Below are positions 28,733 through 47,593 of a DNA stretch of 64,000 nt, one piece after another. The position numbers were made by a program, and so were the translations under genes. The stretch is from Myxococcota bacterium (GTDB lineage: Bacteria > Myxococcota_A > SURF-8): the NCBI GenBank assembly GCA_965140415.1, contig OZ223209.1, forward strand, positions 1 to 64,000, in the 5' to 3' direction. The notes below the pieces were generated by a model that was given only the letters and a program-made list of their open reading frames with translations, did no database searches and had not been told where the DNA came from. Within the stretch, counting starts at the first letter, position 1. Each line of letters begins with the position of its first letter.

Positions 28733-29436
28733 TTCGACACCTCTACAACGGAGCCTTAGTTATCGCTTCCACCGGATATTATGCCATTCAGGAAATCTCG
28801 AACTCGTTTGTCGACCGATACGGTCCCCGAAGCTGGGAAATCGTGGAAAACTGGGCCAAAGCGCTGACCGAAAAATGCGGAGTGCACATCGAAGCGATTG
28901 GACGGGAACATCTTAGTGAAAACGAAGCGCGCGTTTTCATTACCAATCACCGTTCGCATTACGATATTCCCGCCATTGTCATGGCGACCGGCTTACGCTT
29001 GCATTTCATCACGAAAAAAGAACTCTTTCGCGTTCCCCTTTTCGGGCGCGGTATGCGGGCGCTGGATATGATTGAAATCGATCGTTCCGATAAATACAAG
29101 GCGCTGGCTTCGATGGAAAACGCCGCGCGGATGGTGCGCGAAGGTCGCAACGTGTTGGTTTTTGCCGAGGGCACCCGCTCCAAGGACGGCAAGACGATGC
29201 GTCCTTTTAAAAAGGGCGGTTTTCACCTGGCTTTACAGGCGCAGGTTCCGATTCAGCCGCTCGTGGTTTTAGGTAGCGAGCGCGTGCTGCCGAAACACAC
29301 GATGGGAGTCACTCCCGGAACGATTACGGTAAAAATCGGTGCGCCGATTCCCGTTCACGAAGGGGACGACCTCTCCGAATTGATGCAGCAGACCCGCCAG
29401 GTGATGCAGCGAATGATCGACGAAGAAGAATTCTGA
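28729..29436 (+). CDS. plsC: Lysophospholipid acyltransferase (PlsC family)
   Basis: NHRSHYD, FAEGTRS, PFKKG; ATGA overlap with the upstream gene. Confidence 0.85.
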   Translation: MIRHLYNGALVIASTGYYAIQEISNSFVDRYGPRSWEIVENWAKALTEKCGVHIEAIGREHLSENEARVFITNHRSHYDIPAIVMATGLRLHFITKKELFRVPLFGRGMRALDMIEIDRSDKYKALASMENAARMVREGRNVLVFAEGTRSKDGKTMRPFKKGGFHLALQAQVPIQPLVVLGSERVLPKHTMGVTPGTITVKIGAPIPVHEGDDLSELMQQTRQVMQRMIDEEEF

Positions 29437-29598
29437 CAGGGCTTCGGCACCTTCATGCTGCGGTATGCGACGTATTGAGGCGCAATACACCGACGTGCTG
29501 CTTTCTTTTTCCGGAAGAACACGGTTAACTGATACCCAAGCCGAATTTCGTTTTAAGAGGCTTTTCGATTTTCGTAGCGGTAAGGGGCAGGGCCGCCG

Positions 29599-32500
29599 TT
29601 ACGGCCCACCCCGAACGCAGCGGACACCACTGTAGGTTGTTTTGTTCATGTAGGCCACATCACCAGAATTAAAATAAATAAACCATCCATACAATGAGTA
29701 AGAGGAAGACGACCAGAAGTTCGATATGGAAGCTACTCCCAGTTCGTCTGGCCAATACCAGTTACCGCCAGCAGAGCAAGAATCCGGCATACAGGCATTG
29801 TCCTCATGACAGGACAGTTCGAGACATACATCCTCCGAACTTACACCACATAAAGAACACTCATCAAATACACCACATGCACCAGAATTTTCTATTGGAG
29901 GGCAATTACGGATAAGTGATCTCAATTCACTGATGTTCGGTAACTTCCAACCGTTACCATCCAGCGAAAGACTTTCACAGTGACTGACCGCACTGGTCCA
30001 ATCCATTGTTCCACCTGTCGGTGTTTGCTGCCATTCGAAACAGGTGGTGGGATCCTTGCAAATGCCATCGCTGCAAGTGAAGGTATCAATGCAATGCGGA
30101 TAGCAGGATTTCCCCTCCGCGCAGCGATTGCACCAGTATCCGTCGAACTCCGGGTCGCACTCGCAACTGGGGCGGGTTTCGCCTTCACCGGGTTCGGAGC
30201 AGGTGCCGTGGCCGTTGCAGGGGTCGGGGTCGCAACTCGGAACAGGCAGTGTGCGGACCAGGCGGAAGCCACAATGACCATAACGTTCATCTGGAGAGCC
30301 TCCACGTCGGCTAGCAGATCTACAATCTTGTGCATCGAAGTACCATGAACCTCCTCGTTTGGCACGAATAGAAAGACTGGTTGGACCTATGGGATCGGTT
30401 TCGTTGTCTATTTCATAATCATGAAAATAGCAATTCCAAGTCCATTCCCATACATTGCCACTCATATCGAATAAGTTCCATGCGTTTGGTTCTTTCAATC
30501 CTACTGGATGAGTAGTAAGTCCATCTCCGAGATCAGAGTTAACTGAGTACCAAGCGATTTGATCCATGTTTGAGTCGGAGTATCCACTAGATATCGAACC
30601 ATCGTTGCCATCACTTTGATAAATTGGTGTATATTGGTCTCCAGTTCTAATGGAATATTCCCACTCTGCTTCTGTTGGCAATCTATAGCCTTCGCACTCC
30701 TGCGGAATTGTTGCGCCTCCACTAAGGGTCACAACAGCATCATCTATTCCCCCATTTGTTGAATCGCTATCGAAGCAGTTCATATAATCGGAGCCCACCG
30801 TTCCTCCACTTTCGCAATCAACACTCGCAAACTCAAAGCAAGCAGACAACCCCTGGCTAATAGACAGTTGATTGGCAAATGCCAAGGCATCATACCAGGA
30901 GGTCTGCTCAACGGGGCAGGAACCTCCATCAACACCATCGCAGGTGGTAAATCTGCTTGGGTTTGTTGTCATCAGCTCGACAAATTCGGCTTGAGTAGTT
31001 TCATATTGTTGAATTTCGAAATCATACGTTAAATTGACTTTGTGCAGCTCTTCATTCGCTCCCCATGGTTCTCTTGCAATTTCCGCCGTGCAATCACCCG
31101 GATAGCCATCCGGTCCCGGGCAGCCATCGGGCGAGCCCATCCAGAAGGTACCTGCATCAATCGACACGAAACCCGGTGTGTGGGCCAGATAGCAATCCGG
31201 GTAGCCGTCGTAGTTTGACGCGCAACGTTCGCAGGTTTCGCCGCCAAAGCCCGTTTCGCAATTACACACACCCGTACCGCTCGACCAATCGCAGGTACCG
31301 TGGTTGGAGCAGGCGTTCGGGTCGCTTAGAGAGCATACCGGCGGGAGGTTTATGCGGAGGAGGAAAATGTCGAGATCACCATTTGATGTTTGTTCATCTG
31401 TTCTCGACCCAGAGTTAAAATCAACCGTATTGGAAAATCCTCCAGCAAATCCCAAGCCGCCATTGGCTAGGGGGGCGACTCCTTTGACTGATGAACTCTC
31501 AACCACGTAGCTTGAACGATAGCTTCCATCATTTTCGAAAATGCTAATGAAAAGACCTGAACCAGAATCATTTGTGTGCTCATCAACTCCTGTTCCTGGA
31601 TCAAAATCAACTGTCCCCATAAATGCACCTGTTAAAGCCAGACTACCATCCTGCATTTGGACAACATCAACACCTTGGTCATGATTTCCTCCCCCAAAAG
31701 TATTTGTCCAAACGTGAATTCCATTAGGATCAAACACTGAAACAAATACATCTAAGGTGCCGTTTGACGTGTGTTCTTCAACTTCGGGGCCTGGATTGAA
31801 ATCCACGGTTTGATTAAAAATCCCGGTGAGCGCTAGACCTCCGCCGTTTAAGCTAGTGATAGAATTGCCTTCATCAGTGTATGTCCCACCAAATGACTGA
31901 CCCCAACGATAGCTTCCATCAGTGTTAAAAACACTAACGAATATATCTTTCTCACCGTTTGAAGTATGTTCATCTGTTTCTGTACCTGGATTAAAGTCAA
32001 CAGTATCCTGAAAAAATCCTGTAAGCGCGATAGAGCCATCCGTCAACTCTACAACACTGTGACCGTAATCTGCCGATTCCCCCCCGAATGTTCTGCTCCA
32101 TCTATGGTCTCCGTTGGCATCAAAGACACTTACAAAAACATCACTTTCGCCGCTTGATGAATGATTTTCTGTACCTGAGCCAGGATCGAAATCGACTGTA
32201 TATTGAAAATGGCCAACCACTGCTAGTCCACCATCTGAGAGTTGTGTAATACCTTTGCCATAGTCATCAGATGTACCCCCAAAAACTCGGCTCCACCTAT
32301 ATTCGCCAGTATTTGAAAACACAGTAACAAATACATCACTGGATGTACCACTTGCAGTATATTCATCCTCAGCTTCGCTCGGATCAAAATCGACTGTTCT
32401 CTGAAAATGTCCAGTTACAGCAAAGCCACCATCTACCAATTGTGTGATTGCCCACCCATCATCGCCCATTGTCCCTCCGAACGTCTTGCCCCAAATATAG

Positions 32501-35500
32501 TTCCCGCTCGAATCGAAAATGCTTAGAAACACATCTTGAGAACCGTTAGATGTGTGGTTGTCCTCTTCGTCACTAGGATCGAAGTCAACCGTATCATGGA
32601 TATAACCTGCCAAGGCCATACCACCATCGGCAAGTTGGACAATCCCTCCAAGAGCTAGGTCCACACCAGTACCCCCAAACGTTACTGCCCAACCAGCATC
32701 ATAGCATCCATAAATTGCATCACAGGCGTCGTGGGTTTTGGGATTATTGTCTAAGTCACAGTACAGATCATCAGGCTCGCCCGCTGTGCAGATGCCATTC
32801 TGACATTCATCCAGTGTGCAATCCACCCCATCAAACTCGCAGCCTTCACCATTCTCGATGTGATTATCCAAGCACACACCCGCGCCATTGCAGGTATCCG
32901 GTGCGGTGCAGGTTGTGGTTTCCGTGCTGCCGCAGGCCGTGCCTGCCGGGTCGAAGCAGGAATCGACATCCTCCTGGCAGGTGTTGCACTCGGTTTCCGG
33001 GCAGGGGTTGCCATCGTGAATGCATTCACCCGAACCGTTGCAGGTATCGTCGCCGTTGCAGAACAGGCTGTCGTCGCAGTCGTAACCGAAGCTGCGCCAG
33101 GTCCAGATGTCGGTAGCGACGCCCGTGTCGCAGTAGTGGCAGCGGTTGTCGGACTGCTCCTGGTTGTGCTGATAACAGGTCTCGTCGATCAGGCAGCGTC
33201 CCTGCTTCAAGGTGTGGTTGCATTGCCCGTTCGTCGCACAAAGATCGTCGGTGCAGGAGAGGGTGTCGTCCGTGCAGATCTCGCTTTCATGCGCGGCTAG
33301 ATTGTGCTTGCACGTGCGATCCGTATCGCAGAAGGGCTCCGAGCATTCCAAGCCATCGTCGGCCAGATCCGAACACCCCGCCGCCGTGGTGCAGTCTTTA
33401 CAATACCCACTGCCATCGCACTGGTCCGAATCGTCTCCCGTGCCGCCAACCTGACAGGCAGTGTTGGCCGCATAGTTATTGAACGAGCAGACGCCGTTCT
33501 GACACTGCATTTCCGTGCATTCGCCATCGCGGCCATTCCAGGACATGTCGCCGCAGCCATTGACGTTCACACAGTCTTTGCAATATCCGCTGCCGTCGCA
33601 TTGATCGGAATCGTCGCCGCTGCCGTCCGATTGACACAGGGTGTTCGCGGCATCGTTACTGAACGAGCAGGTGTTGTTCTGGCATTGCATCTGCGCGCAT
33701 TCATCATCGCGTTCGCCCCAGTCCAGATCCGAACAGCCACCCACATCGTAGCAATCCTCGCAGGTGCCGGAAACGCACTGGTCATCCGTGCCACAGGCCG
33801 TGCCGTCGGTCATGGGCGTCCAGGAGGTGTCGTTGTAGAAAAGATCGCATTTCTGACAGGAGTTAGTCGGATCGGTATGCAGATTCTGATAGCACTCTCC
33901 TCCGATGTAACACCAACCGCCAGCGGTGTCCGCGCTCCATTCGTCGTCCGCACCCGAACCGTAGGGATTGCAGACCAGGCAGTCTTTCGGTCCCCGCGCC
34001 CCGGTGGCGTAGCAGGTACCGTCGATGTAGCAGTCGCAGATTTCCGGGTCGGCATCGCCGTCGGGTATGTCCACATCGCCATCGGGATTTTCGAGATAGG
34101 CGGCATCCCATTGCAGCGGATCGTTGATGATGCCACAGTCGATCACCTGAGCGCCAGCCGGGTTTCTAAGTGGCGACCAGCAATATTCCTGAAGAAGGGC
34201 CAGGTCTTCGTAACGGAATGCGGAGTCGCTGTCGTCCGGTCGGTAGTCGTATTGCCCATCGGGCACGGACTCGTCCCACAAATCGTAGTAGGGCCAGTCT
34301 TTGAACTGCTGGACCGCTGCCAGATAATACTGGTAAATGAGAGCGGCTTCGCTCGATTTGAGCGGCAGTCCCTCCGAGGCCGCCTGCAAAATGTAGTGAG
34401 CCAGATCGCGGTCCCATTTGTCGCCATAGGCCAGTCGTTCATCGTCGTCCGCCATGTAACGGTCGATGCGCATCCCCAGCCCTTCAAGCAATGTTTCCGC
34501 CGTGCTGTCACGATGGCGAAGCAGGGAGCCGCCCAGGGCAGCCGTATGCCAGTTGCGAACGATTGCATAATTGTAATAATGAACAGCGGTGGCCGTGGTT
34601 TCGTAACTGTTGTTGTCGTATAAACCACAGTTGTTGCTCAGAGGCGCAGCATAGCCGATCAGGGCGGCTGAAAGCTTGGCCCCGCACTCGGCATTGGGAA
34701 AAAGGTCTTCCCAGTCGACAAAGCTGGCGATATCGCCCACAGACTGATCCGCCTCGGTATCACCCGTGTGACCGGGAATGAAGGGATTGCCGTTTTCGTC
34801 TTTACTGCGGATGTAGTAGCCACTGTCCACGATATCGCGGGTGAAGCCCTGTAGATATTGCCAGGCTTCGGCGGCGGCGGCTTTGACGTCTGCGTCGGGT
34901 GCGTATTCGGCGGCGTAACGGATGAACGGAGCGGCGCGGAAGATATGGGCAGCATTATCCTTGGACTGCATATTGGTTACCCATACCGATCCCCAACTCG
35001 GGTTATTCGCATAATTGAAACGGCTCGCATTCCATAGTGAGGATGAGTAGTACCAGGCGCTGAAGTCCACGGCTTTATTCCGGCCATCAACCGTGAAGGA
35101 ATGGTTCTCACCCACAATATTGCGCGCCATTAAATAGTCCTGCTGGTCGTACTCGTCATACATCATGCCCAGCATGGCCGCGGTGATTCCCTTGCAGTAC
35201 TGTTTCACAATCTCACCGGCATCGCTGTCGCCTGTCGAAAGGTAGGCACCGATAGCCTGAGACAGCACTTTCGATGTTCTAATGAAGATGTTGTGACCGC
35301 CACCCGTGCCGTCGTTGTGCTTGAATGTGACTGTGTCCCCCGATTTGATGGCTTCCACGTCGCTCCACCAGACCATCCAGTCCCGCTTGCCCGTGGAGGC
35401 GTCGTTGCCGTGGCTCGTGCGGCGGACATGTTGCCAGTAATCGATTTTCTGCCAGAGTCCCGTAATGCTGCGGCTCAGGTGTTCGATTTGCTCCTCCGAA

Positions 35501-37296
35501 AGAGGCGTCCCCTCATCCTCGCGTGTAAATTCAAAAGGCAGGGCCTCCGGTAGATCCTCTGACATTTCGAATTCAAAATCGCCATCAGGCATATCCACAT
35601 CGCCATCGGTAACCACGCAGGGAAGCGAGTTGAAATCGAATGCGCCGTTACTGCGAGTGACTTGCCAAGTCAATAGATCGCCTTCCTCGTCCATCTCGTC
35701 CTGAAGCAGGCAGGTCGAGCCTTGCCTGTCATCGGTTTTGGAAAGCAGAACATTCACCAGAGTATTGCTCTGATTCAAGCAGACGCCCTGGGTTATCTCT
35801 TGCGCGCAATCTTCATCGAAGCGGGCGGTAAGCGTGTAGGTGCCGTCGCAGGGATCGATGTGGCTAATGCGTTCCCGCAGGCCGTTTGCGGCGCTGTCCG
35901 TGTTTTCAAGAACGAAGGCCGAACCGCAGCTTGAGAATATACATTCGTGAGACGCATTCATGCTTTGATCGTCGCAGAGCGTGCCATTGGGAACTTGCCA
36001 GCCGAGTTGCACGTTCATCTCGCCTTCGCCGGTAAAGGTCATTTCGATGTCGATTTGGTCCTCATTGCCGTAGTTCACAAGCACCCGTTTCGAAAAGGAA
36101 CTCAAGCCGCGGCTGTCGGTGACGACCAGTTCCACAACGTATTGACCCACAATATCCACTTCAAATGTCACGATTCCACTTTGCTCGTTTGGAGACAGAG
36201 TTGCGTTGGATAACGCTGGCTTCGTGAGACTCCATTGATATTCCAGGGGGTAATCGCCATCAGGGTCGTAGCTGATCGTTCCATACAGCGTAAGGCGCTT
36301 CTGGGCGCTTGTTGCGGTGGAAGGAATTGTAATGGGAGCGGTAATGTCCGCACCATTGTCGGAGAGCGCGACCAAGGCGACGGGGAGCATGTTTTCACTG
36401 TCGCCGTCGATGTCACCATCGGAGGTATCCTGATCGGTGTCCGTCTGTTCCTGATCCGTATCCGTCTGTTCCACATCTCCGTCCGACTGTTCTTCGTCAC
36501 CATCGGGAAACACGCACTCGCCCTTGTTGAAGGTGAAGGTCGCTTCGAGCGTGCCGGTAGACTGAAGCACAAGATCGTAGCCGTTCTGATTCGTCGTTAA
36601 ATACAGATCCCAAAGCGCGTCATCCAAGATTTGGGTGCTGTCATGTACACAGCCTGAGATCTCGCCGCTGGTGGTCGCAACAAGCGGTAATCCGCTGATC
36701 GAGTAGTTGTACTTGCAGTCATTGGGCGTGCCGTCCTCGATCTGGATTACGATTCCGTAGAAAGAATTCTGTTCGGTCGGGTCCATGCAGTAGGTACCGA
36801 CGAAATCCGGGCAGTCGCAGGGATCGATTTCATGATCCGTTTCGATTTCGTCCGTATCGCCATCCGGAAGGTCAGAGTCGTGATCACCATCCGGTGTGTC
36901 GCCGTCAGACGTATCACCATCAGGTGTATCGCCATCAGGTGTATCGCCGTCGGGAGAATCGGAGTCACGGTCACCATCGGGAGTATCACCATCGAACGTG
37001 TCTCCGTCTGGAGTATCGCCATCGGCAAAATCAAGATCGAAATCGAGGTCGAAATCGCCATCGGGAGTGTCGCCGTCTGGTGTATCTCCATCCGGATTTT
37101 CGGAGTCTGCAAGATCCGAATCACTCGGATTGCTAACGCAAAGTCCCTCCACGCAGTGCAGGCCGTCGTCACAACTCAGATCGGCATAGCACTTTTCGCC
37201 CGCGCCGCCGTAGTTTTCATAACCACTACACGCGCAGAGCAGGCAAACCAGCCCGAGTAATCCCGCTATTCCGAAACGTCGCCAATATGATTTCAT
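29599..37296 (-). CDS. 2565-aa modular surface lipoprotein: DGD linkers, PKD/REJ-like, unknown ~480-aa domain, Cys-rich repeats, VDFDP beta-propeller, EGF, FGE-sulfatase (SUMF1)-like, EGF, DUF1566/Lcl C-terminal
   Basis: Lipobox LCAC; SYDPDGD..YQWS; seven VDF(D/N)P-type repeats; RLPTEAEWEY, DMSGNVWEW, RGGSW, GFRLVR; WKLPNISELRSL, FWSSS, VRCVR. Confidence 0.88.
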   Translation of the reverse strand: MKSYWRRFGIAGLLGLVCLLCACSGYENYGGAGEKCYADLSCDDGLHCVEGLCVSNPSDSDLADSENPDGDTPDGDTPDGDFDLDFDLDFADGDTPDGDTFDGDTPDGDRDSDSPDGDTPDGDTPDGDTSDGDTPDGDHDSDLPDGDTDEIETDHEIDPCDCPDFVGTYCMDPTEQNSFYGIVIQIEDGTPNDCKYNYSISGLPLVATTSGEISGCVHDSTQILDDALWDLYLTTNQNGYDLVLQSTGTLEATFTFNKGECVFPDGDEEQSDGDVEQTDTDQEQTDTDQDTSDGDIDGDSENMLPVALVALSDNGADITAPITIPSTATSAQKRLTLYGTISYDPDGDYPLEYQWSLTKPALSNATLSPNEQSGIVTFEVDIVGQYVVELVVTDSRGLSSFSKRVLVNYGNEDQIDIEMTFTGEGEMNVQLGWQVPNGTLCDDQSMNASHECIFSSCGSAFVLENTDSAANGLRERISHIDPCDGTYTLTARFDEDCAQEITQGVCLNQSNTLVNVLLSKTDDRQGSTCLLQDEMDEEGDLLTWQVTRSNGAFDFNSLPCVVTDGDVDMPDGDFEFEMSEDLPEALPFEFTREDEGTPLSEEQIEHLSRSITGLWQKIDYWQHVRRTSHGNDASTGKRDWMVWWSDVEAIKSGDTVTFKHNDGTGGGHNIFIRTSKVLSQAIGAYLSTGDSDAGEIVKQYCKGITAAMLGMMYDEYDQQDYLMARNIVGENHSFTVDGRNKAVDFSAWYYSSSLWNASRFNYANNPSWGSVWVTNMQSKDNAAHIFRAAPFIRYAAEYAPDADVKAAAAEAWQYLQGFTRDIVDSGYYIRSKDENGNPFIPGHTGDTEADQSVGDIASFVDWEDLFPNAECGAKLSAALIGYAAPLSNNCGLYDNNSYETTATAVHYYNYAIVRNWHTAALGGSLLRHRDSTAETLLEGLGMRIDRYMADDDERLAYGDKWDRDLAHYILQAASEGLPLKSSEAALIYQYYLAAVQQFKDWPYYDLWDESVPDGQYDYRPDDSDSAFRYEDLALLQEYCWSPLRNPAGAQVIDCGIINDPLQWDAAYLENPDGDVDIPDGDADPEICDCYIDGTCYATGARGPKDCLVCNPYGSGADDEWSADTAGGWCYIGGECYQNLHTDPTNSCQKCDLFYNDTSWTPMTDGTACGTDDQCVSGTCEDCYDVGGCSDLDWGERDDECAQMQCQNNTCSFSNDAANTLCQSDGSGDDSDQCDGSGYCKDCVNVNGCGDMSWNGRDGECTEMQCQNGVCSFNNYAANTACQVGGTGDDSDQCDGSGYCKDCTTAAGCSDLADDGLECSEPFCDTDRTCKHNLAAHESEICTDDTLSCTDDLCATNGQCNHTLKQGRCLIDETCYQHNQEQSDNRCHYCDTGVATDIWTWRSFGYDCDDSLFCNGDDTCNGSGECIHDGNPCPETECNTCQEDVDSCFDPAGTACGSTETTTCTAPDTCNGAGVCLDNHIENGEGCEFDGVDCTLDECQNGICTAGEPDDLYCDLDNNPKTHDACDAIYGCYDAGWAVTFGGTGVDLALGGIVQLADGGMALAGYIHDTVDFDPSDEEDNHTSNGSQDVFLSIFDSSGNYIWGKTFGGTMGDDGWAITQLVDGGFAVTGHFQRTVDFDPSEAEDEYTASGTSSDVFVTVFSNTGEYRWSRVFGGTSDDYGKGITQLSDGGLAVVGHFQYTVDFDPGSGTENHSSSGESDVFVSVFDANGDHRWSRTFGGESADYGHSVVELTDGSIALTGFFQDTVDFNPGTETDEHTSNGEKDIFVSVFNTDGSYRWGQSFGGTYTDEGNSITSLNGGGLALTGIFNQTVDFNPGPEVEEHTSNGTLDVFVSVFDPNGIHVWTNTFGGGNHDQGVDVVQMQDGSLALTGAFMGTVDFDPGTGVDEHTNDSGSGLFISIFENDGSYRSSYVVESSSVKGVAPLANGGLGFAGGFSNTVDFNSGSRTDEQTSNGDLDIFLLRINLPPVCSLSDPNACSNHGTCDWSSGTGVCNCETGFGGETCERCASNYDGYPDCYLAHTPGFVSIDAGTFWMGSPDGCPGPDGYPGDCTAEIAREPWGANEELHKVNLTYDFEIQQYETTQAEFVELMTTNPSRFTTCDGVDGGSCPVEQTSWYDALAFANQLSISQGLSACFEFASVDCESGGTVGSDYMNCFDSDSTNGGIDDAVVTLSGGATIPQECEGYRLPTEAEWEYSIRTGDQYTPIYQSDGNDGSISSGYSDSNMDQIAWYSVNSDLGDGLTTHPVGLKEPNAWNLFDMSGNVWEWTWNCYFHDYEIDNETDPIGPTSLSIRAKRGGSWYFDAQDCRSASRRGGSPDERYGHCGFRLVRTLPVPSCDPDPCNGHGTCSEPGEGETRPSCECDPEFDGYWCNRCAEGKSCYPHCIDTFTCSDGICKDPTTCFEWQQTPTGGTMDWTSAVSHCESLSLDGNGWKLPNISELRSLIRNCPPIENSGACGVFDECSLCGVSSEDVCLELSCHEDNACMPDSCSAGGNWYWPDELGVASISNFWSSSSYSLYGWFIYFNSGDVAYMNKTTYSGVRCVRGGP
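31370..32700 (-). repeat. About seven ~63-aa beta-propeller repeats (FGG...G.F..TVDFDP) in AT-rich DNA
   Basis: Recurring TVDF(D/N)P and S.G..DVFVS motifs in the translation. Confidence 0.75.
33360..33730 (-). repeat. 180-bp (60-aa) tandem duplication of a Cys-rich module
   Basis: GAACGAGCAG at 33481 and 33661; DDSDQCDGSGYCKDC occurs twice. Confidence 0.8.
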
Positions 37297-37355: not shown

Positions 37356-38261
37356 CTACCATTGCCATTGCAGGCTGGCATTGACACCCTGTTTCGTTGG
37401 CATCACTCCCAGCGACACCGGCGAGGATTCCTGGCGGTCGCCGACGGCATCCGCGATCCACAACGCGATGCCGGTGATCATCGCCGCGCCGCCGATGGCA
37501 TAGCCCGCAATCGCCACACCCTGCCAGCTATCGTGCCGCGATTCATCATCGGAACTATCCAGCTTGTTAAAGCGCGCCTCGTTGACATCGTCTGTAGCGG
37601 CTTGCGTCTGCCAGCTTCCGATGCCACCCAGCACGACGAAAGCCAGACCGGGAAAGAAGGTTCCGAAAGCGGCTTTGTTCAAGGTGCTCATGCCGGATTG
37701 CGATTTCTGCTGCACGATCGGCTCGGCTTGTGTAAGTGCGGGCTCCGGCTCCGGCGCAACTTTTCCGAATAGCTCCGCCACCGCACCCGGAATGGCTTCT
37801 ACCAGGGCGTTGATGTCTCCCTTGATCTGTTTGCCTACACGGCCAACGACATTGGCGTTTCGCACGTTGATGCGGCGTAGGTTGAGCATCCAATAGTCGC
37901 CCAGGCGACCCAGATCGCCGGAGATAGCCTCCGGCACACCCAGGGCGGAACCGATTTCGGCGATGCAACTGGTGCCGTCCACGCCGCACTGCTGCCTTTT
38001 CTCTTCGCCTTTCAGAATGGTGTGGATATCCGCTTCCGAAACGGCTTTCAAACCGGAATACTGTTCCGCTTCGGCGGTGATGAATCCGCTGATGGAATCG
38101 ATATTTTTTTCACTGACGCCCTCTTTGGCTTCCAATCGCCAGACCACGATTCCCTGGCGGGGGGAATCTGCTAGGGCCAATTGAGGAGCCACCAGTGACC
38201 ATCCAAGACATATGCCCAGGCAAACCACGATCCATCTGTACGAAAGCCAGCCGTTTTTCAT
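37356..38261 (-). CDS. Secreted protein with CsgG/TolB-N-like domain and C-terminal hydrophobic segments, upstream of the giant lipoprotein gene
   Basis: Signal peptide, SCIAEIGSALG..ISGDLGRLG motif, two Gly-rich hydrophobic segments, terminal beta-strand ASLQWQW. Confidence 0.7.
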   Translation of the reverse strand: MKNGWLSYRWIVVCLGICLGWSLVAPQLALADSPRQGIVVWRLEAKEGVSEKNIDSISGFITAEAEQYSGLKAVSEADIHTILKGEEKRQQCGVDGTSCIAEIGSALGVPEAISGDLGRLGDYWMLNLRRINVRNANVVGRVGKQIKGDINALVEAIPGAVAELFGKVAPEPEPALTQAEPIVQQKSQSGMSTLNKAAFGTFFPGLAFVVLGGIGSWQTQAATDDVNEARFNKLDSSDDESRHDSWQGVAIAGYAIGGAAMITGIALWIADAVGDRQESSPVSLGVMPTKQGVNASLQWQW

Positions 38262-40517: not shown

Positions 40518-41645
40518 ATGCGCGGTCTATACAACCGGTTGATTGAACGTCTGCGAACAGAAGGTGGCGTTTCCGAAATTTTCAGACTCGGCCTTCGATA
40601 TGTGGCAACGCAAACCGCCTGGCGACTTTCGATGAAACCGCTGGGCGGTCCGCTTTCCGGAACATTGGTGCTGACTTTTCGCTGTAATGAAGCCTGTACC
40701 ATGTGCGACCTACCTTCCCGCGCCAAAGGCGCCGAAAGCGCTGAAATCTCTACCGAAACATGGCTCAGAATCGTCGACGAAATGGCGGATCTAGGGGTGA
40801 CGGCCATGAGTATCACCGGCGGGGAACCGCTGCTGCACCCTGATTTCGTCCTGATTGCGCGCCGCATCGTGGCGCATCATCACCTGCCTTTGGTGCTCAG
40901 CAGTAACGGTCTGCTCTTTGCCGATCCTTCCATGACCGAAGCGATTTTGTCTGTGGCTCCCACTCGCATCAACATCAGTATCGATGCCGATGAGGCGGCG
41001 TTGTACGACCGTCTTCGGGGGCGGAAAGGAGCCTGGGAGCGCCTTCACGACGCGCTGAACGTCTTGATGGAAACTCGCAAGCGGATTGCACCCAATGTTG
41101 CATTGAACGCAGTCTGTGTGGTGTCGCCAGACAATGCGGACCGATTGTCAGCTATTGTAAACCATTGCGAGAACCTGGGTTTCGACTCTATCGGATTCAT
41201 GCCGCTACATGCTTTCAGTCCCGCTCATCAAACCAATGCCGCGCCAGTCCCGATACTTGATGCCAAAACGACGAAAACCGCCGTTGACGTCCTGCTTAAA
41301 AAGAAGCGTTCTCGTGGCATCCGCATCGAGAACACGGAAACCTATCTCAAACAGTTCGAATCGGCTTTTTCAGGCAAACCGGCTCCATTACCCTGTGTCA
41401 GCGGCTATGCGCGTATTCTCGTCGATCCCTACGGTAATGTGTTTCCCTGCTGGCCATTTCTCGAATGGAACCGCCCGCCGGTCGGCAATATCGCCCATGC
41501 ACCACTTGGCGCTCTATGGAACTCCACGACGTATCAGCAGCAACGGCAGCAGATGCAGTCCTGTCGTGCCTGTTACTGGAACTGCCAGGTGGAAGCCAAC
41601 ATTCTGTTTCACCTACCTCTGCTCGGCCTACACAAACAGGGTTGA
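40518..41645 (+). CDS. Radical SAM protein with SPASM/twitch domain
   Basis: CNEACTMC, ITGGEPLL, CVSG...VFPC...CRACYWNC. Confidence 0.88.
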   Translation: MRGLYNRLIERLRTEGGVSEIFRLGLRYVATQTAWRLSMKPLGGPLSGTLVLTFRCNEACTMCDLPSRAKGAESAEISTETWLRIVDEMADLGVTAMSITGGEPLLHPDFVLIARRIVAHHHLPLVLSSNGLLFADPSMTEAILSVAPTRINISIDADEAALYDRLRGRKGAWERLHDALNVLMETRKRIAPNVALNAVCVVSPDNADRLSAIVNHCENLGFDSIGFMPLHAFSPAHQTNAAPVPILDAKTTKTAVDVLLKKKRSRGIRIENTETYLKQFESAFSGKPAPLPCVSGYARILVDPYGNVFPCWPFLEWNRPPVGNIAHAPLGALWNSTTYQQQRQQMQSCRACYWNCQVEANILFHLPLLGLHKQG

Positions 41646-41796: not shown

Positions 41797-42294
41797 ATGA
41801 AGACGATTCACCTTGTCGTGTTTTTTTGCGCGATTCTCCTTGTAACTGTGGCTGCTTGGGCGCAATCGGTCATTCCGCTTTCAGGCAGTGAAAAGGTCGA
41901 GGTCGCCCCAACTAAAAACGCGTGTTGTGAAAATGCGAAGGATCGCGGTCTGGCCGAGGCGAACAAGCAATGCCATCCGGGAACGGTGAGCAACTACAAC
42001 GCCGGAGCCTGTACGACCACCGTGAACGAGGAGATCAAGGAATATTTCGATTGTACACGCTCCTGGACGGCCACCTGCACAATGTCGGAAACTGCACAAG
42101 AGCAACCGAGCGAGTCCGATCCCTGCGAAGGCGTAAGCTGTTCGGGACATGGAAGCTGTGTCGCTGTTGACAATCTGGCGGTCTGTCAGTGCGATCCCGG
42201 TTATGGACCGTCACCGGATACCGGCCAGGGTTGTTTTCCAACCGAAGATTTTAAAAAGAAACTTGAAGATTTCTTGAAGGATGGCGCGCCATGA
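41797..42294 (+). CDS. Small secreted Cys-rich protein with EGF-like module
   Basis: Signal peptide AWA|Q, DPCEGVSCSGHGSC...CQCDPGY. Confidence 0.75.
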   Translation: MKTIHLVVFFCAILLVTVAAWAQSVIPLSGSEKVEVAPTKNACCENAKDRGLAEANKQCHPGTVSNYNAGACTTTVNEEIKEYFDCTRSWTATCTMSETAQEQPSESDPCEGVSCSGHGSCVAVDNLAVCQCDPGYGPSPDTGQGCFPTEDFKKKLEDFLKDGAP

Positions 42295-45200
42295 CGCGAA
42301 ACACAATCATCATTGTCACAGCCACGATCCTGTTTCTTTTTTGTTCTGTCTGTTATGCAGCGGATCAACAAGATACGCATCGTGCTTCTGCGCAAATGCG
42401 AACTGGTCTTCCGGTGGTGCTGATCAACATTGCTGCACCAGAAGAGATGAAACAGGAAGCGCTGGGCTTGACCTTGCTGTTACAGAATTCCGTCGCCACA
42501 CCAACACGAAAACTGATCGATCGGGATGGGTTGGACGATGTGATGCTGCCGAGCACCGGCAATCAGAAAAAAGATGTCCTATTAGTTAAAGATATCCTGT
42601 ACTTCGCTTCTGTCAGCGGCGCGAACAAGGTGATTCAAGGTTGGCTGGAACGCTACCCGGATCGCTTGCAGTTGGACCTGCGAGATTACGATGTTTTTAC
42701 CGGCAAAAGCACGGATGCGGTTCGATTGACGGCTGAAACGCAGGATGTGGATGGGCTGATGAGCCAGGCGCTTGCACCGATCAACCGCTGGCTGGGAGAA
42801 CCGGAAAAGGCTCAGCAAACCGAAAGCGCAGCGTTTTCACTTGACGAGACGAACACGCTGGCGCAGTTGTGGCTGGCGAAATCTCCTTGGGAAATGGAAC
42901 AAACGCTTGAATTGTTGGAACTGCTCTGCTCGCTACCTCAGAAAACGCCTCGGCTTTCCCCATGGTTGTTGCGTAAACTCGTCGCGAAAATGGGAACGGT
43001 AGACGATCCCCTGTCTAAGGCACTATTGGCCGAGTTGGCGCAAAACACCGAGGATGCCATTCGGATTTACAATTCGATTCCCGCCAAATCCAAGGCGGCT
43101 CATCTGGCAGCCCTGCGAAGCGCGATTTTGGAATATCGCTACGGTCATCAGGCCAAAGCCGAACGAGCATTTAAAAAAATCGCTCGCAAATACAAGAAAC
43201 ATCCCCTTGCAAAACTCTGGTCGGCACATCTGCTGATCGAGGCGGGAAAAGACAGGCGAGCGGCCAAAGCTTTGGCCTCCATCAAAAAGGCAAAGATTCA
43301 TCCCGAGTTATACCGTCGGTTGGCAACAAACTTTGAACGACAAGATAAAGCGTTGCAAGCGGCCAAAGCCACTCATCTTGCGGTGGAAACAGCATCTTTA
43401 CGTGGGCTGGTTTCACTAGCGGCAAAGCTTTCCGTACTGGAAGCACGCTTGAAACAGACGGATGTAGAGGCTACCCGGATCTTTCCCGCATATCTCGATG
43501 AAGCCGAGCGCGCAGAGTTATTGAAATATTTCTCGAAGCAAACGGAATCGAAATCGAAGAATCTGGCGCTGGCGCGGCTGATCTCTATCGGCAAAACGCC
43601 TCAAACGGCGCAGCGTTATTACGAAGCGCTCGTTATGTCGGGTGACTATCGGGCCGATGACTTTACGGAAGCCGGGCGTTTTCTATCACGCTTCGGTAAC
43701 GATCCAAAAATGGCCGGACTGGTATTGAAAGTGGCATTGAAACTGGACCCTGCAAGTGAATCGGTGTTGTTTGCATTGGCAGATCACTACCTGAAACAGG
43801 GGGATCTGGACGCCGCCATGGCGCTTTGCAAACAGGTAAAGAAACATTTTCCGTTGTGGCCTTATGTGAGCCGTTTGGATGCCCGTTACAAGCGTATCTG
43901 CAAAGAAACCCTGAAAGCGGAAAAGAGTTTGCGCGCGCGTTTGGAGGCGTATCCGGACGATGCCGAGGCGCTGGTTTTGCTGATCCGTGTCTTGATGGAT
44001 CTGGATCGTATGTTAGAGGCTCAACTGCAATACGCGCATTTAGAAGCCGTGGATATTCGTCTGGCCAATGCGTTGGGACCACCCAGTAAAAGTGAAACCA
44101 CGGCAAAGCTTGGGGAGATTAAAACAGAAGGCAACGAGTCGTTTCTGGCTGAGGCCGCCAACAGGAAGGGCGAAGGCAAATACAGCGAGCTGGAGAAGTT
44201 GCAGCAGGGCTTGAACGAAAGTCTCAAAGACGACAAGCTCAAGCTGGATTTGTCGGATCTGGCAGGTCTGATGGATTCCTCCAAACCCGACGAATTGAAG
44301 CGCATCGCTTCGGATCTGGGTATTCGGGTCAATACCGATAAAGCCGCCTCGCAGTTACAACAATTGCAGCTTGAAAACAAAAATGCCGCACCGATGCTGC
44401 CGCCCGGCAAGGGAACCGGCTTGTTGGATACGCTAAAGGGCATGGCGGACATGGCCAAGAAGTATCGGGAAGAGCAAGCGGCAAAGGCTCAAGCTGCTAT
44501 GGCGGAAGAAGAAAAAAAATCGCTTTCGGCCTGGTATTTCAACTGGTCGGAAGGATTGGCGCTGAAACTGGCTATTCTGTTGGCGGTACTGCTGCTGGTC
44601 CTAACGGTTGCTGTCACGATTCTGTACTGGTATCGCAAAGCCACAGGAACGGGGGGATTGACTGCCCGTGTTTCGTACAATCGCGCTTTCCACGAAGGAT
44701 TCTTCATCGGGCGGCTGTCTGAAAATGAATTGGAAACGGCATTCGAAAACGTCACCAAATTCTGGCGCAGCGCCAACCGCTCGCAGCCGGGACCGGTTCG
44801 CATATTTTGGAAGACGTTATTTCCCTATACGACAATGGCGGTGCGCGATATTCTGACGTTCGAACATATTCCGCCGGGTGCCTACCATCTTTACATTGCC
44901 AGCATTCAGACCGATCCTAAAACCGAATTGCCTATCGGCAGCGTTGAAATTCACGAACGAGTGACCATCTCTACAGGGATGGGGAATGCCGAACTTCGTT
45001 TTGAAGAAGCATTGGCTTATGTCGGCGTCAAGGTCGTTCGAAAAATTCACATCGATACGTCACAGGCGGATGCATTGACCGGCAAAAAGAAAGATCCGGT
45101 GGTCGTAACTGCGGACAGCCTCCCGGACTTGAACGAGAGCGGGAAACTAAACGAGGAAATTTCCGTGTACCTGCCCACGGGCCGACATCTGCTGAACATC

Positions 45201-45326
45201 CAATTCGGTGCCACCGTCATGCAGCGGGAAGTAACCGTTAAAGAAGATCTTTCGCCGCAGTGGCTGGAACTCGATCTGCAATCCGTCAACGTTCGAAAAG
45301 CCAGGCTGGATTCGAGCCCCGTATAG
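42291..45326 (+). CDS. Large TPR-containing single-pass membrane protein
   Basis: Signal peptide, long TPR-like helical region, TM segment LAILLAVLLLVLTVAV, beta-rich C-terminal part; ATGA overlap with the upstream gene. Confidence 0.75.
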   Translation: MTRNTIIIVTATILFLFCSVCYAADQQDTHRASAQMRTGLPVVLINIAAPEEMKQEALGLTLLLQNSVATPTRKLIDRDGLDDVMLPSTGNQKKDVLLVKDILYFASVSGANKVIQGWLERYPDRLQLDLRDYDVFTGKSTDAVRLTAETQDVDGLMSQALAPINRWLGEPEKAQQTESAAFSLDETNTLAQLWLAKSPWEMEQTLELLELLCSLPQKTPRLSPWLLRKLVAKMGTVDDPLSKALLAELAQNTEDAIRIYNSIPAKSKAAHLAALRSAILEYRYGHQAKAERAFKKIARKYKKHPLAKLWSAHLLIEAGKDRRAAKALASIKKAKIHPELYRRLATNFERQDKALQAAKATHLAVETASLRGLVSLAAKLSVLEARLKQTDVEATRIFPAYLDEAERAELLKYFSKQTESKSKNLALARLISIGKTPQTAQRYYEALVMSGDYRADDFTEAGRFLSRFGNDPKMAGLVLKVALKLDPASESVLFALADHYLKQGDLDAAMALCKQVKKHFPLWPYVSRLDARYKRICKETLKAEKSLRARLEAYPDDAEALVLLIRVLMDLDRMLEAQLQYAHLEAVDIRLANALGPPSKSETTAKLGEIKTEGNESFLAEAANRKGEGKYSELEKLQQGLNESLKDDKLKLDLSDLAGLMDSSKPDELKRIASDLGIRVNTDKAASQLQQLQLENKNAAPMLPPGKGTGLLDTLKGMADMAKKYREEQAAKAQAAMAEEEKKSLSAWYFNWSEGLALKLAILLAVLLLVLTVAVTILYWYRKATGTGGLTARVSYNRAFHEGFFIGRLSENELETAFENVTKFWRSANRSQPGPVRIFWKTLFPYTTMAVRDILTFEHIPPGAYHLYIASIQTDPKTELPIGSVEIHERVTISTGMGNAELRFEEALAYVGVKVVRKIHIDTSQADALTGKKKDPVVVTADSLPDLNESGKLNEEISVYLPTGRHLLNIQFGATVMQREVTVKEDLSPQWLELDLQSVNVRKARLDSSPV

Positions 45327-45649: not shown

Positions 45650-47593
45650 TTACGGCACGGTTACATAGGCCGTGTCGTAAAGTTGATTCCAGACCATGAC
45701 GTTGATGGTATAATCGCCGCTGGGAAGATCGTAAATGCTGCTGTTGACGTCGTACAGGCAGACGCAGTCGCAGGGCGCTTGCAGCATTTCTGTTTCGGTG
45801 AGCGTGATCGTGAAGCCGTCGATAGCCATTGCCACCGCGATTTCGTCGATGCAACAGTTGTATTCGGCGTTATGATGCAACACGGCGATGTGATCCGTTT
45901 CCCAGTTCGCCGTCAACGTTTCATCGGTACTGTCACGAAATCCGGAACCAAGGCAGTCGGAGTTGTTGTGCTGCAATTCCGGTGCAGCCCCGACCGTCAA
46001 GGAAGTGCTTCCCGCCAGATTTCCATCGTTGTTGTAAAATTCCACCGTGTATAGGCCGTCGGCCAACCCGGCAACCTGGGCGCTGATATCGAAGGGACAG
46101 ACGCAGAAACAGGGATTGGGAGCGACTTCCGTTTCGTACAGTTTCAACGTATTGCCATCCTGCACCAACTCCACGCTGATTTCGTCGATGCAGCAGTTGT
46201 ACACCGCGTTATGATGAGTCGCCGTAGCCAGTCCGGTTTCGGCATCGTAACTGGCTTCAAAGCTTTCCGTGCCATACAAGCTGTCATCATCGCCGTCGAC
46301 AGTGCGTGTCGCGCCGTTCAGGCAGTCAGAATTACGTACACCGGCCAGTTGCACACCACCGACAGTCACTTGGGCCGATCCAGCCAACTGGCCACCGTCC
46401 AGGTAAAATTCCACCGTGTACACTCCGTCCGCGAGATCGTCGATTTGAGCGCTGACATCATACGGGCATACGCAGGCGCAGGGCATATCGACCTGTTCCG
46501 TTTCGTACAGTTTCAGTGTAGTGCCATCCTGCACCAGATCCACATCGATGGAGTCGATGCAGCAGTTGTACACCGCGTTGTGATGAATTGCCGTAACGGC
46601 TCCGGTAGAGGAATCGTAATTTGCCTCGAAGGTCGCGGCGGGGAACATGCCGTCTTCGTCACCATCCACCGTGGTGCGCGTGTTACCCAGACAGTCGGAA
46701 TTCTGAACGTTGCTCAGCGTGGCGCCATCACCTACCGTGACTTGAGCCGAGCCGGCCAGATCGCCACCATCCTTGTAGAATTCCACGGTGTAGCTGCCAT
46801 CTTCCAGATCCGCAATCTGCGTCTCGACATCGTAAGGGCAGATGCAGTTGCATGGCATATCGAGGATTTCCGTTTCGTAGAGTTTCAGCGTGTTGCCATC
46901 CACTACCAGATCCAGCCCGATGGACTCGATGCAGCAATTATAAATGACGTTGTGATGAATCGCCGTAACCAGACCGGTCGTCGGATTGTAGCTGGCTTCG
47001 ACACTTTCTACACCGAAAGGATCCTCGCTGTCGCCGGTGCGGGTTCCCAGGCAGCTGGAGTTGGTCGTTTCGCGCAGATTCGGACCGCTGCTGTCGCCAT
47101 CGGTGGTGTCGCCGTCGGTCATGTCGCCATCGGTCGTATCGCCATCGATGGTGTCGCCGTCGGTCATGTCGCCATCGGTCGTATCACCATCGGGCGTGTC
47201 GCCATCGGCAGTGTCGCCATCGGCAGTATCACCATCGGCAGTGTCGCCATCGGCAGTATCACCATCGGCAGTGTCGCCATCGGCAGTATCGCCATCGGCA
47301 GTGTCGCCATCGGCAGTGTCGCCATCGGCAGTGTCGCCATCGGCAGTGTCGCCATCGGTCGTGTCACCATCGGCAGTATCTCCGTCGGTTGTGTCGCCAT
47401 CGGTCGTATCGCCATCGGTTGTGTCGCCATCGGTGGTGTCGCCATCGGTTGTGTCGCCATCGGTGGTATCACCATCGGTCGTGTCGCCGTCAGCAGTATC
47501 GCCATCGACGGTGTCATCGTCGTCACCGCAACCGGCCAGCGCGACTGTCGCCAGCATCATCATTAAAAGGATGAAAATCGAAAGTTTACGCAT
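45650..47593 (-). CDS. Lipoprotein with ~28 xxDGD pentapeptide repeats and four NCC...CxCxC domains
   Basis: MRKLSIF signal, lipobox LAGC, four HHN..YNCCI...ETE...CxCxC.(Y/F)D repeats. Confidence 0.85.
   Translation of the reverse strand: MRKLSIFILLMMMLATVALAGCGDDDDTVDGDTADGDTTDGDTTDGDTTDGDTTDGDTTDGDTTDGDTTDGDTADGDTTDGDTADGDTADGDTADGDTADGDTADGDTADGDTADGDTADGDTADGDTADGDTPDGDTTDGDMTDGDTIDGDTTDGDMTDGDTTDGDSSGPNLRETTNSSCLGTRTGDSEDPFGVESVEASYNPTTGLVTAIHHNVIYNCCIESIGLDLVVDGNTLKLYETEILDMPCNCICPYDVETQIADLEDGSYTVEFYKDGGDLAGSAQVTVGDGATLSNVQNSDCLGNTRTTVDGDEDGMFPAATFEANYDSSTGAVTAIHHNAVYNCCIDSIDVDLVQDGTTLKLYETEQVDMPCACVCPYDVSAQIDDLADGVYTVEFYLDGGQLAGSAQVTVGGVQLAGVRNSDCLNGATRTVDGDDDSLYGTESFEASYDAETGLATATHHNAVYNCCIDEISVELVQDGNTLKLYETEVAPNPCFCVCPFDISAQVAGLADGLYTVEFYNNDGNLAGSTSLTVGAAPELQHNNSDCLGSGFRDSTDETLTANWETDHIAVLHHNAEYNCCIDEIAVAMAIDGFTITLTETEMLQAPCDCVCLYDVNSSIYDLPSGDYTINVMVWNQLYDTAYVTVP
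47093..47513 (-). repeat. 15-bp tandem repeat array (about 28 units, consensus GACACTGCCGATGGC) encoding xxDGD
   Basis: Repeated GTGTCGCCATCGGCA / GTATCGCCATCGGTC units visible directly. Confidence 0.92.

Follow-up and report, generated by a model that had tools for sequence, protein, structure and literature searches.

Why should one bacterial gene pass, several times and within a few codons, between two opposite habits of synonymous codon choice? The question is raised by a gene near the start of a Myxococcota genome that was assembled into one contig (5.98 Mb, 52.4% GC); the opening 64,000 nucleotides of this contig are called the window here. The gene, which we call gene A, runs on the reverse strand from 37296 to 29599, with its stop codon at 29599–29601, and encodes a modular protein of 2,565 amino acids (aa) in one uninterrupted open reading frame (ORF). 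A preliminary description of the window had noted AT-rich domain cores in a GC-rich scaffold, and had interpreted them as ligand-binding cassettes swapped in frame at conserved flanks of a polymorphic surface receptor.

The mosaic was confirmed and is statistically extreme. G+C content at third codon positions (GC3) spanned 0.20–0.93 across gene A in sliding windows of 40 codons and changed in abrupt blocks, a pattern with no counterpart at first and second positions (GC1 and GC2). The alternation of codon endings within a single frame was thus correctly described, and the seven hand counts of G+C per 60 nucleotides (nt) that accompanied that description (19, 22, 23 and 19 versus 43, 41 and 37) were exact. 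Among 3,022 ORFs of at least 240 codons in the genome, gene A had the widest within-gene GC3 range (0.66, compared with a 99th percentile of 0.425), and a paralogue, B, ranked second. Segmentation, with the number of segments chosen by the Bayesian information criterion, divided the gene into seven: codons 1–156 (GC3 0.47), 157–1524 (0.68), 1525–1974 (0.32), 1975–2064 (0.69), 2065–2343 (0.36), 2344–2418 (0.73) and 2419–2565 (0.42). Genes of this genome have a mean GC3 of 0.60 (standard deviation 0.078).

Each of the three AT-rich segments corresponds to a domain core. Block 1 (codons 1525–1974, positions 32724–31375) is a probable SBBP-type beta-propeller in which six blades of about 65 aa were found by motif (aa ~1540–1975); the SBBP repeat PF06739 was unlisted for the whole gene A protein at E ≤ 0.01, and is precomputed on most database homologues of the propeller part. 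Block 2 (codons 2065–2343, 31104–30268) is the core of a C-type-lectin-like FGE-sulfatase domain (PF03781, aa 2040–2348; 131.8 bits versus a cut-off of 23.3, profile positions 2–255 of 255). Judged by eye, its C-terminal stretch RGGSWYFDAQDCRSASRRGG has a single Cys at what would be the position of the Cys pair of catalytic formylglycine-generating enzymes. Block 3 (codons 2419–2565, 30042–29602) is an Lcl_C or DUF1566 domain (PF07603, aa 2412–2562; 53.4 bits versus 34.9, E 3.9e-14) that ends in VRCVRGGP.

The GC-rich segments lie between and before these cores. The Cys-rich scaffold (codons 1080–1524, 34059–32725) has a GC3 of 0.74 with a peak of 0.90–0.93. Connector 1 (31374–31105) comprises the end of the last blade (DIFLLR), an EGF-like module (EGF1) and the start of the FGE domain (FWMGSPDGCPGPDGYPGDCTAE); connector 2 (30267–30043) comprises the GFRLVR motif and a second EGF-like module (EGF2). 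At 0.69 and 0.73, these EGF-containing spacers are GC-rich, as had been reported.

The edges are sharp. With support intervals of 2 log-likelihood units, the switch SNGD/LDIFLLR was placed at codons 1972–1978 and YGHC/GFRLVR at codons 2340–2344 (the slash marks the switch), both within about three codons; a third, GDCTA/EIAREP, fell at codons 2056–2074, and two looser switches at codons 1481–1526 and 2392–2427. The idea that switches sit at conserved motifs therefore held for DIFLLR, GFRLVR and GDCTA/EIAREP and failed for VRCVR, which is the C-terminal end of the protein. The previously estimated block edges likewise matched the segmentation, save that the propeller block begins, at its upper end, near 32725 (support interval 32853–32719) rather than at ~32860.

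The AT shift is confined to synonymous choice. The GC3 expected from the amino acids and genome codon usage was 0.57–0.62 for every block, and amino-acid make-up was accordingly rejected as the cause. Observed minus expected GC3 corresponded to z = −11.4 for the propeller, −8.7 for the FGE core, −5.0 for Lcl_C and +6.6 for the Cys-rich scaffold, with the two short connectors near the genome norm (+1.1 for EGF1 and +2.4 for EGF2). Combined first- and second-position G+C (GC12) was 0.501 in the cores versus 0.509 in the rest of the gene. Import from AT-rich genomes would look different: GC12 is 0.445 in the 143 low-GC3 genes of this genome and 0.41–0.46 in SBBP propellers of low-GC organisms. 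At fourfold-degenerate sites the cores were enriched in A and T to the same degree, the propeller having A 0.35, T 0.34, C 0.16 and G 0.15, and this equal enrichment carries no signature of strand-specific damage.

The effect is also regional rather than residue by residue. Conserved and variable residues had GC3 values of 0.34 and 0.29 in the propeller, 0.40 and 0.31 in the FGE core and 0.79 and 0.70 in the Cys-rich scaffold (all Fisher p > 0.14); in the small EGF1 block the two differed by 0.21, again without significance. Within-block differences of 0.05–0.09 in the three large blocks are far below the contrast of about 0.4 between blocks, and site-wise selection for translational accuracy was rejected as the main cause, the within-block effect being small and not significant. 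On the regional scale, GC3 followed protein conservation over the C-terminal 1,266 aa (Spearman 0.58, p = 3e-4, 34 windows). Ribosomal-protein and elongation-factor genes have GC3 values of 0.58–0.71, so expression-linked codon choice fails to explain a scaffold at 0.74–0.93.

Do the two kinds of block share one history? When the 5.98-Mb genome was searched with blastn, a single gene gave nucleotide matches to the GC-rich scaffold and connectors. This paralogue B (genome positions 5375822–5379754; 1,310 aa) starts its module series with a Cys-rich scaffold, continues through a linker unlike that of gene A to FGE and EGF2, ends in two Lcl_C domains and lacks the propeller. Identity to gene A was 82.2% over 971 nt (33807–32837), 82.2% over 90 nt (31170–31081) and 85.6% over 160 nt (30271–30112). 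EGF1 and all three AT-rich cores had no nucleotide match anywhere in the genome. The expectation of many paralogues with near-identical spacers was thus not borne out: spacer matches were limited to B at 82–86%, EGF1 had none, and there were no silent cassettes.

Because strong codon bias can mimic relatedness, codon identity between A and B at conserved residues was set against a permutation null. Identical codons numbered 178 of 257 in the Cys-rich scaffold (127 expected, z = 7.1), compared with 39 of 123 in the FGE core (40 expected, z = −0.3); EGF2 gave 33 of 47 (27 expected, z = 2.1) and the FGE start 17 of 25 (16.5 expected, z = 0.3). This test replaced Nei–Gojobori (NG86) synonymous distances, which overstate the recency of the connectors since codon bias lowers the saturation level. 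The FGE cores of A and B share 50% aa identity with saturated synonymous sites, and saturation (proportion of synonymous differences 0.77–0.90) made ratios of nonsynonymous to synonymous rates between cores unusable.

The scaffold is patchily alike in the two genes, with a 55-nt exact run from 33551 and a codon identity of 0.93 at aa 1240–1284. The best 120-nt window (33460–33579) is 95.8% identical and is the most recent gene-conversion patch shared with B; such high-identity patches are conversion tracts. The two short connectors contain no exact run of at least 20 nt between the genes. Inside the scaffold there is also a tandem duplication of about 140 nt (33392–33531 and 33572–33711, 75.7% identical), and the same repeated module occurs in B.

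An approximately unbiased (AU) test rejected the FGE cores of A and B as sisters (p = 0.026). Together with the contrast in codon identity, this shows that scaffold and core differ in history. In the tree of 26 FGE cores on which the test was made, 6 of 23 branches were starred and most groupings were unresolved; the end branch of the gene A core measured 0.78. The tree of the Cys-rich scaffold had 0 of 9 branches starred and drew long-branch warnings, so that for the scaffold only pairwise identities were used: 81–82% between A and B, 75% with the database protein P0001, 65% with G003 and 61% with G008.

G003 (a genome of the same family and another genus) and G008 (of another family in the same order) supplied the comparison that bears most directly on the age of the mosaic. 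Among 31 genomes searched, 26 matched the C-terminal 1,090 aa of gene A, and within the order this family has undergone great expansion. In G003 and G008 the matching genes have the module order Cys-rich, propeller, EGF1, FGE, as in gene A, and directly upstream of each stands a homologue (43% and 57%, respectively) of the 301-aa gene upstream of gene A (37356–38261, reverse strand, without a Pfam family). This conserved neighbour marks them as positional orthologues. Identity to gene A was 66–94% in the connectors and 43–62% in the cores, with connector 1 at 80–94% aa identity to the G003 orthologue.

The GC3 landscape is conserved along with the modules. Segments of the G003 gene had values of 0.70 (Cys-rich), 0.41 (propeller) and 0.61, and those of the G008 gene 0.78, 0.41 and 0.61, with switches at equivalent places; mean GC3 of sampled ORFs is 0.60 in G003 and 0.64 in G008. 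Synonymous sites are saturated between gene A and these orthologues, and a trough shared under saturation implies that low propeller GC3 has been maintained and is not the remnant of a transfer. Conservation in positional orthologues rules out the usual reading of AT-rich sequence as recently foreign. It is also an observation that the preliminary description had named in advance as speaking against swapped cores: G003 and G008 keep both the module order and the low-GC3 propeller.

Over longer times, modules have changed partners. P0001 has the whole architecture of gene A, with connectors 74–91% identical (EGF2 connector 87%) and cores 36–49% identical to those of A, and its FGE core is closer to that of B (61%) than to that of A (49%). 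Another relative, G002:C76, joins a B-like head, with the same CEP.RCGDSPSGCY linker before FGE, to an A-like tail in which EGF2 is 71–74% identical to gene A, the CYP.C motif is present and the Lcl domain is 50% identical at a low GC3 of 0.42. This composition indicates that modules were reassorted between two gene lineages. The nearest FGE core to that of gene A is 62% identical (G003, partial) and 57% within the genome; the nearest propeller reaches 43–47% and the nearest Lcl domain 50%.

How could such a landscape arise and persist? Mutation in bacteria is biased towards AT, and proteins that evolve fast tend, through interference, to have weak codon bias. Lassalle et al. (PLoS Genet 2015, PMC4450053) report that gene GC content and intragenic recombination are positively associated across bacteria. 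The explanation we tentatively prefer, at a little short of even confidence, is that two long-lived regimes coexist in one reading frame: connectors that are conserved and still recombine, and cores that diverge fast and have slackened towards AT at their synonymous sites. Slow Cys-rich and EGF-like connectors would alternate with fast-evolving SBBP propeller, FGE-type lectin-like and Lcl_C modules, which from their domain types are probably ligand-binding. Homologous recombination, between alleles or between paralogues, would start and end only in the conserved connectors. There GC-biased conversion and efficient codon selection would act, so that connectors would keep or exceed the genome preference for G/C-ending codons, and at least the Cys-rich scaffold would still be patched by gene conversion with a paralogue. 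The diverged cores, probably under recurrent diversifying selection, would recombine little and drift towards an AT-biased mutational equilibrium, and crossovers in the connectors would reassort whole cores over evolutionary time.

Two genome-wide trends bear on this explanation. Across the 12 FGE cores of the genome, GC3 falls as end branches lengthen (rho −0.64, p = 0.025). Codons within repeats of 90–98% identity have a GC3 of 0.688 versus 0.604 elsewhere, and in a comparison paired within genes GC3 was higher inside the repeats in 90 of 157 (p = 0.039).

Several points weigh against the two-regime explanation. The repeat comparison is weak (90 of 157) and biased, since GC-rich, codon-biased DNA is more readily detected as similar. 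The FGE core of gene A is low in GC3 where those of its orthologues are not (0.53 and 0.60), and this block may therefore have its own, younger history. Propeller blades have been homogenised within the G003 and G008 genes (identity 0.63–0.66 within and 0.47–0.50 between), so recombination of some kind does occur in the low-GC3 block, which a simple model of recombination raising GC3 does not predict; blades in gene A and P0001 are not homogenised (mean within-gene identity 0.47 and 0.38). At synonymous sites the two short connectors give at best a marginal sign of younger ancestry (z = 2.1 and 0.3), and their matches to B can arise from protein conservation and shared codon bias. The switches placed within three codons could equally be old recombination junctions.

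In the interpretation first given to the locus, AT-rich binding cores are swapped in frame from a cassette pool through conserved flanks, the locus is a polymorphic receptor and the AT-richness is that of imported DNA. The incongruent ancestry of scaffold and core is what such swapping would produce, as are the two switches within three codons at DIFLLR and GFRLVR and the reassorted modules of G002:C76 and P0001. The genome itself contains the textbook form of the process in its Type IIG restriction-modification paralogues (below), and movement through short DNA similarity encoding conserved motifs is described by Furuta and Kobayashi (NAR 2012, PMC3467074). Against it, no nucleotide-level copy of any core exists in the genome, and the connectors match one paralogue only, at 82–86%, every exact run being shorter than 20 nt. 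Nothing closer than 54% to the C-terminal half was present in a collection of 5.8 billion proteins, in either length range; the best relatives were 47–54% identical and, among those placed, belong to the same order, and the database cluster of gene A has one member on one contig.

Searches of proteins and metagenomes likewise returned no conspecific alleles, a metagenome scan with connector 2 yielding 18 loci at 41–67%. A low-GC donor was not found by a propeller scan of genome contigs, whose seven loci were 26–36% identical across the propeller and reached 55–65% only on short connector stretches. Positional orthologues keep the modules and the low-GC3 propeller, and the GC12 of the cores is host-like, whereas recognition domains and Wzt_C in this genome are shifted by 0.04–0.07. 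We therefore consider cassette import unlikely. Of the original interpretation, the mosaic of differing histories stands (z = 7.1 versus −0.3; AU p = 0.026; reassorted modules), and the active polymorphic cassette system is not supported; the results indicate module exchange on an evolutionary timescale together with conversion in connectors.

A second alternative is that the codon landscape is itself selected: A/T-ending rare codons would slow translation or alter the mRNA across self-folding domains and might keep the precursor fit for export, and the disulfide-dependent connectors would need no translational brake. It has been proposed elsewhere that clusters of rare codons are conserved at particular positions. 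The mosaic of gene A has the properties that such selection would leave, being synonymous only, tied to domains, sharp-edged and kept in orthologues despite saturated synonymous sites. Against selection of this kind, GC3 in the same genome ranges over 0.33–0.75 in FGE domains and 0.33–0.76 in Lcl domains and is 0.56–0.59 in another SBBP propeller, so that other copies of the three families have ordinary values. A 1,526-aa lipoprotein encoded beside paralogue B (5371172–5375752) reverses the pattern, with four Lcl_C domains in its GC-rich half (0.73) and an N-terminal half at 0.52; AT-richness is thus no family trait of Lcl_C. Gene A has an AT-rich FGE core and its orthologues do not, and cytoplasmic restriction-modification enzymes and an ABC ATPase, none of them exported, bear the same signature. 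Selection of the landscape is in our view quite improbable.

A third alternative is one ancient horizontal transfer that brought AT-rich domain DNA into a GC-rich gene and was left unameliorated. In its favour, the fourfold-site composition of the cores resembles that of the low-GC3 gene class of the genome. A transfer of this kind is already close to refuted, and we give it very little credence: three separate blocks alternate with native-like connectors, the propeller block is common to orthologues at saturated synonymous sites, so that amelioration should be complete, GC12 is host-like, and no donor-like relative was found.

The remaining candidates, an assembly chimera and local hypermutation by a diversity-generating retroelement (DGR), were rejected and have a negligible probability: an independent short-read assembly has a 30,551-nt contig that runs through 29000–32998 with 0 differences and thus bridges all five junctions, and no template repeat was found and no repeat pair with adenine-specific mismatches around either of the two reverse-transcriptase genes of the genome. 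Chimeric assembly, which had been raised beforehand as fatal to the mosaic, was therefore not seen, in a test of assembly rather than strain variation, the sequence being present in two public runs of one study from which the genome itself may have been built. The single break in the assembly graph is at 32977–33526, where it forks into two 550-nt contigs, the second of which, with 55 differences, is paralogue B. No alternative cores were seen in the two runs, which are stored as contigs and so drop rare variants. As to a DGR, surveys of such elements (Ye 2014, PMC4159848; Wu et al. 2018, PMC5758913) reportedly list FGE-sulfatase and DUF1566 domain names together, and the genome has reverse transcriptases at 3799712–3800059 and 4305603–4306340 (3.80 and 4.31 Mb), neither adjacent to gene A. 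The end of the FGE domain (30268–30420) has no second copy in the genome by blastn and hence no template repeat, and DGR mutagenesis would not render whole domains AT-rich at synonymous sites. About 21 kb around the first reverse transcriptase are bracketed by a 143-nt inverted repeat (97.9%; 3795695–3795837 and 3816991–3817133), in a region that has several low-GC3 matches to FGE, Lcl and Cys-rich modules.

The remainder of gene A has a less unusual composition. Codons 1–156 (37296–36829) form a signal peptide, judged by eye, followed by an acidic linker of PDGD-type repeats. The N-terminus MKSYWRRFGIAGLLGLVCLLCAC-SG (...LLCAC) resembles a lipobox by eye, and the corresponding position reads LSGC in B, FSAC in P0001 and LPAC in G003; the product thus reads as a putative surface lipoprotein. 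The PDGD/TPDGD repeat (36854–37116) has dozens of nucleotide-level matches genome-wide at 66–91%, including 47094–47507 in the window. The N-terminal and middle region that follows (codons 157–1079, 36828–34060) has a GC3 of about 0.63–0.68, near the genome norm, and gave only weak, PKD-like Pfam matches below the cut-off; aa 600–1080 are shared with seven paralogues at 33–48% identity. A few kilobases from gene A, on the forward strand, a radical SAM/SPASM protein (40518–41645) is encoded directly upstream of a 1,011-aa TPR protein (42291–45326) with a weak, sub-cut-off match to the TPR of surface lipoprotein assembly modifiers (23.4 bits versus 35.2).

Is gene A alone in its pattern? We scanned with Pfam 14 strongly mosaic genes of the genome, leaving out 1275465–1276709, 1342315–1344435 and 798450–801734 of the top list and 4120804–4124712. 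The low-GC3 segment overlapped a recognition or binding domain in 10 of the 14, with one case, the gene at 5371172–5375752, reversed and three unclear. The ten are A, B, three Type IIG restriction-modification enzymes, a Wzt ATPase, a LamG lipoprotein, two PQQ-propeller/FGE lipoproteins (one of them with LamG) and an FGE-RCC1 protein. Unlike in gene A, GC12 is also lower in the low segments of the other mosaic genes, by 0.04–0.085.

Two of the Type IIG genes (4098829–4102239 and 5331579–5334896, both on the reverse strand; Eco57I/MmeI-type methylase with TaqI_C/MmeI_TRD) are paralogues with scaffolds 85–98% identical in nucleotide sequence at a GC3 of 0.7–0.95, and recognition domains only 38–42% identical in amino acids at 0.35–0.47. 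The pair is textbook recognition-domain replacement; a third, MmeI-like gene (L033) has the same low-GC3 trough. In the Wzt-type ABC ATPase (5663150–5664433, reverse strand) GC3 and GC12 are 0.31 and 0.430 in the Wzt_C tail (aa 235–427), against 0.70 and 0.502 in the ATPase part. The LamG gene (3333803–3338608, reverse strand) encodes a 1,601-aa lipoprotein with three Laminin_G_3 domains and is strictly periodic, with GC3 values of 0.40, 0.82, 0.34, 0.84, 0.42 and 0.79, each rise starting at the G.IDEV/IDDV motif that is conserved close to where a LamG domain ends.

A more general proposition would be that a position-specific landscape of synonymous codons is a heritable, conserved property of modular surface-protein genes, with sharp GC3 troughs marking their specificity modules. 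We regard it as rather doubtful, and state it for what would follow. Positional orthologues of different families would still have the GC3 troughs when their synonymous sites had long been saturated, and simple GC3 segmentation would find hypervariable recognition modules without annotation; here it picked out propellers, lectin-like, LamG and Wzt_C domains and the recognition domains of restriction enzymes. Such a landscape would be the record either of recombination restricted to connectors or of a selected translation-rate programme for giant exported proteins. Should the overlap of low-GC3 segments with recognition and binding domains recur in further genomes, segmentation by GC3 would be an inexpensive way to locate specificity modules, and genes of this kind would offer a natural system for separating biased gene conversion, interference from diversifying selection and selection on translation within genes.

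Mosaic genes and domain movement are already known. What is new in gene A is that the mosaic is synonymous only, that its edges are sharp to a few codons at conserved motifs and that it is conserved across genus and family. Judged by titles and abstract openings, the open-access articles searched gave no description of a conserved within-gene GC3 landscape or of the gene A lipoprotein family.

Among known systems, Wzt ABC ATPases have a serotype-specific C-terminal domain, and polysaccharide loci are AT-rich. Like gene A, the Wzt ATPase of this genome carries its specificity module at a much lower GC3 than its conserved part; in Wzt, first and second positions shift as well, whereas the shift in gene A is synonymous only. 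DGR variable proteins reportedly have FGE-type C-lectin or DUF1566 folds, and gene A has the same two domain families. In contrast to DGR targets, where variation covers the C-terminal ~100 nt, variation in gene A spans whole domains, and gene A is without a template repeat or an adjacent reverse transcriptase.

The closest likeness is to the movement of recognition domains in restriction-modification methyltransferases, reportedly also a subject of Furuta et al. (2011, PMC3077401). Target recognition domains of these enzymes move and are replaced, according to Furuta and Kobayashi (2012). As in that account, gene A sets variable specificity modules between conserved segments, the ancestries of module and flank disagree and junctions fall at conserved motifs; as in the Type IIG enzymes of its own genome, a low-GC3 core sits in a high-GC3 scaffold. 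Gene A differs from the movement so described in lacking the second module copy that defines it: no other locus was seen to carry an identical or near-identical core, and the connectors are only 82–86% identical to one paralogue. Its GC12 difference is 0.008, compared with 0.04–0.05 for recognition domains, and its modules are predicted extracellular binding domains.

Lassalle et al. (2015) found higher GC at synonymous sites where recombination was detected, independent of selection on codon usage, which accounts for variation in composition inside a genome. That comparison is between genes; the contrast in gene A lies within one gene, at the scale of domains, with edges of a few codons and conservation across genera. 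In-frame divergent (‘homeologous’) blocks within genes, enriched in membrane and surface proteins, were described by Touzain et al. (Genome Biol 2010, PMC2884548). The segments of that study were defined by comparison between strains and are mostly short, whereas the blocks of gene A measure 0.4–1.35 kb and are defined by their codon composition.

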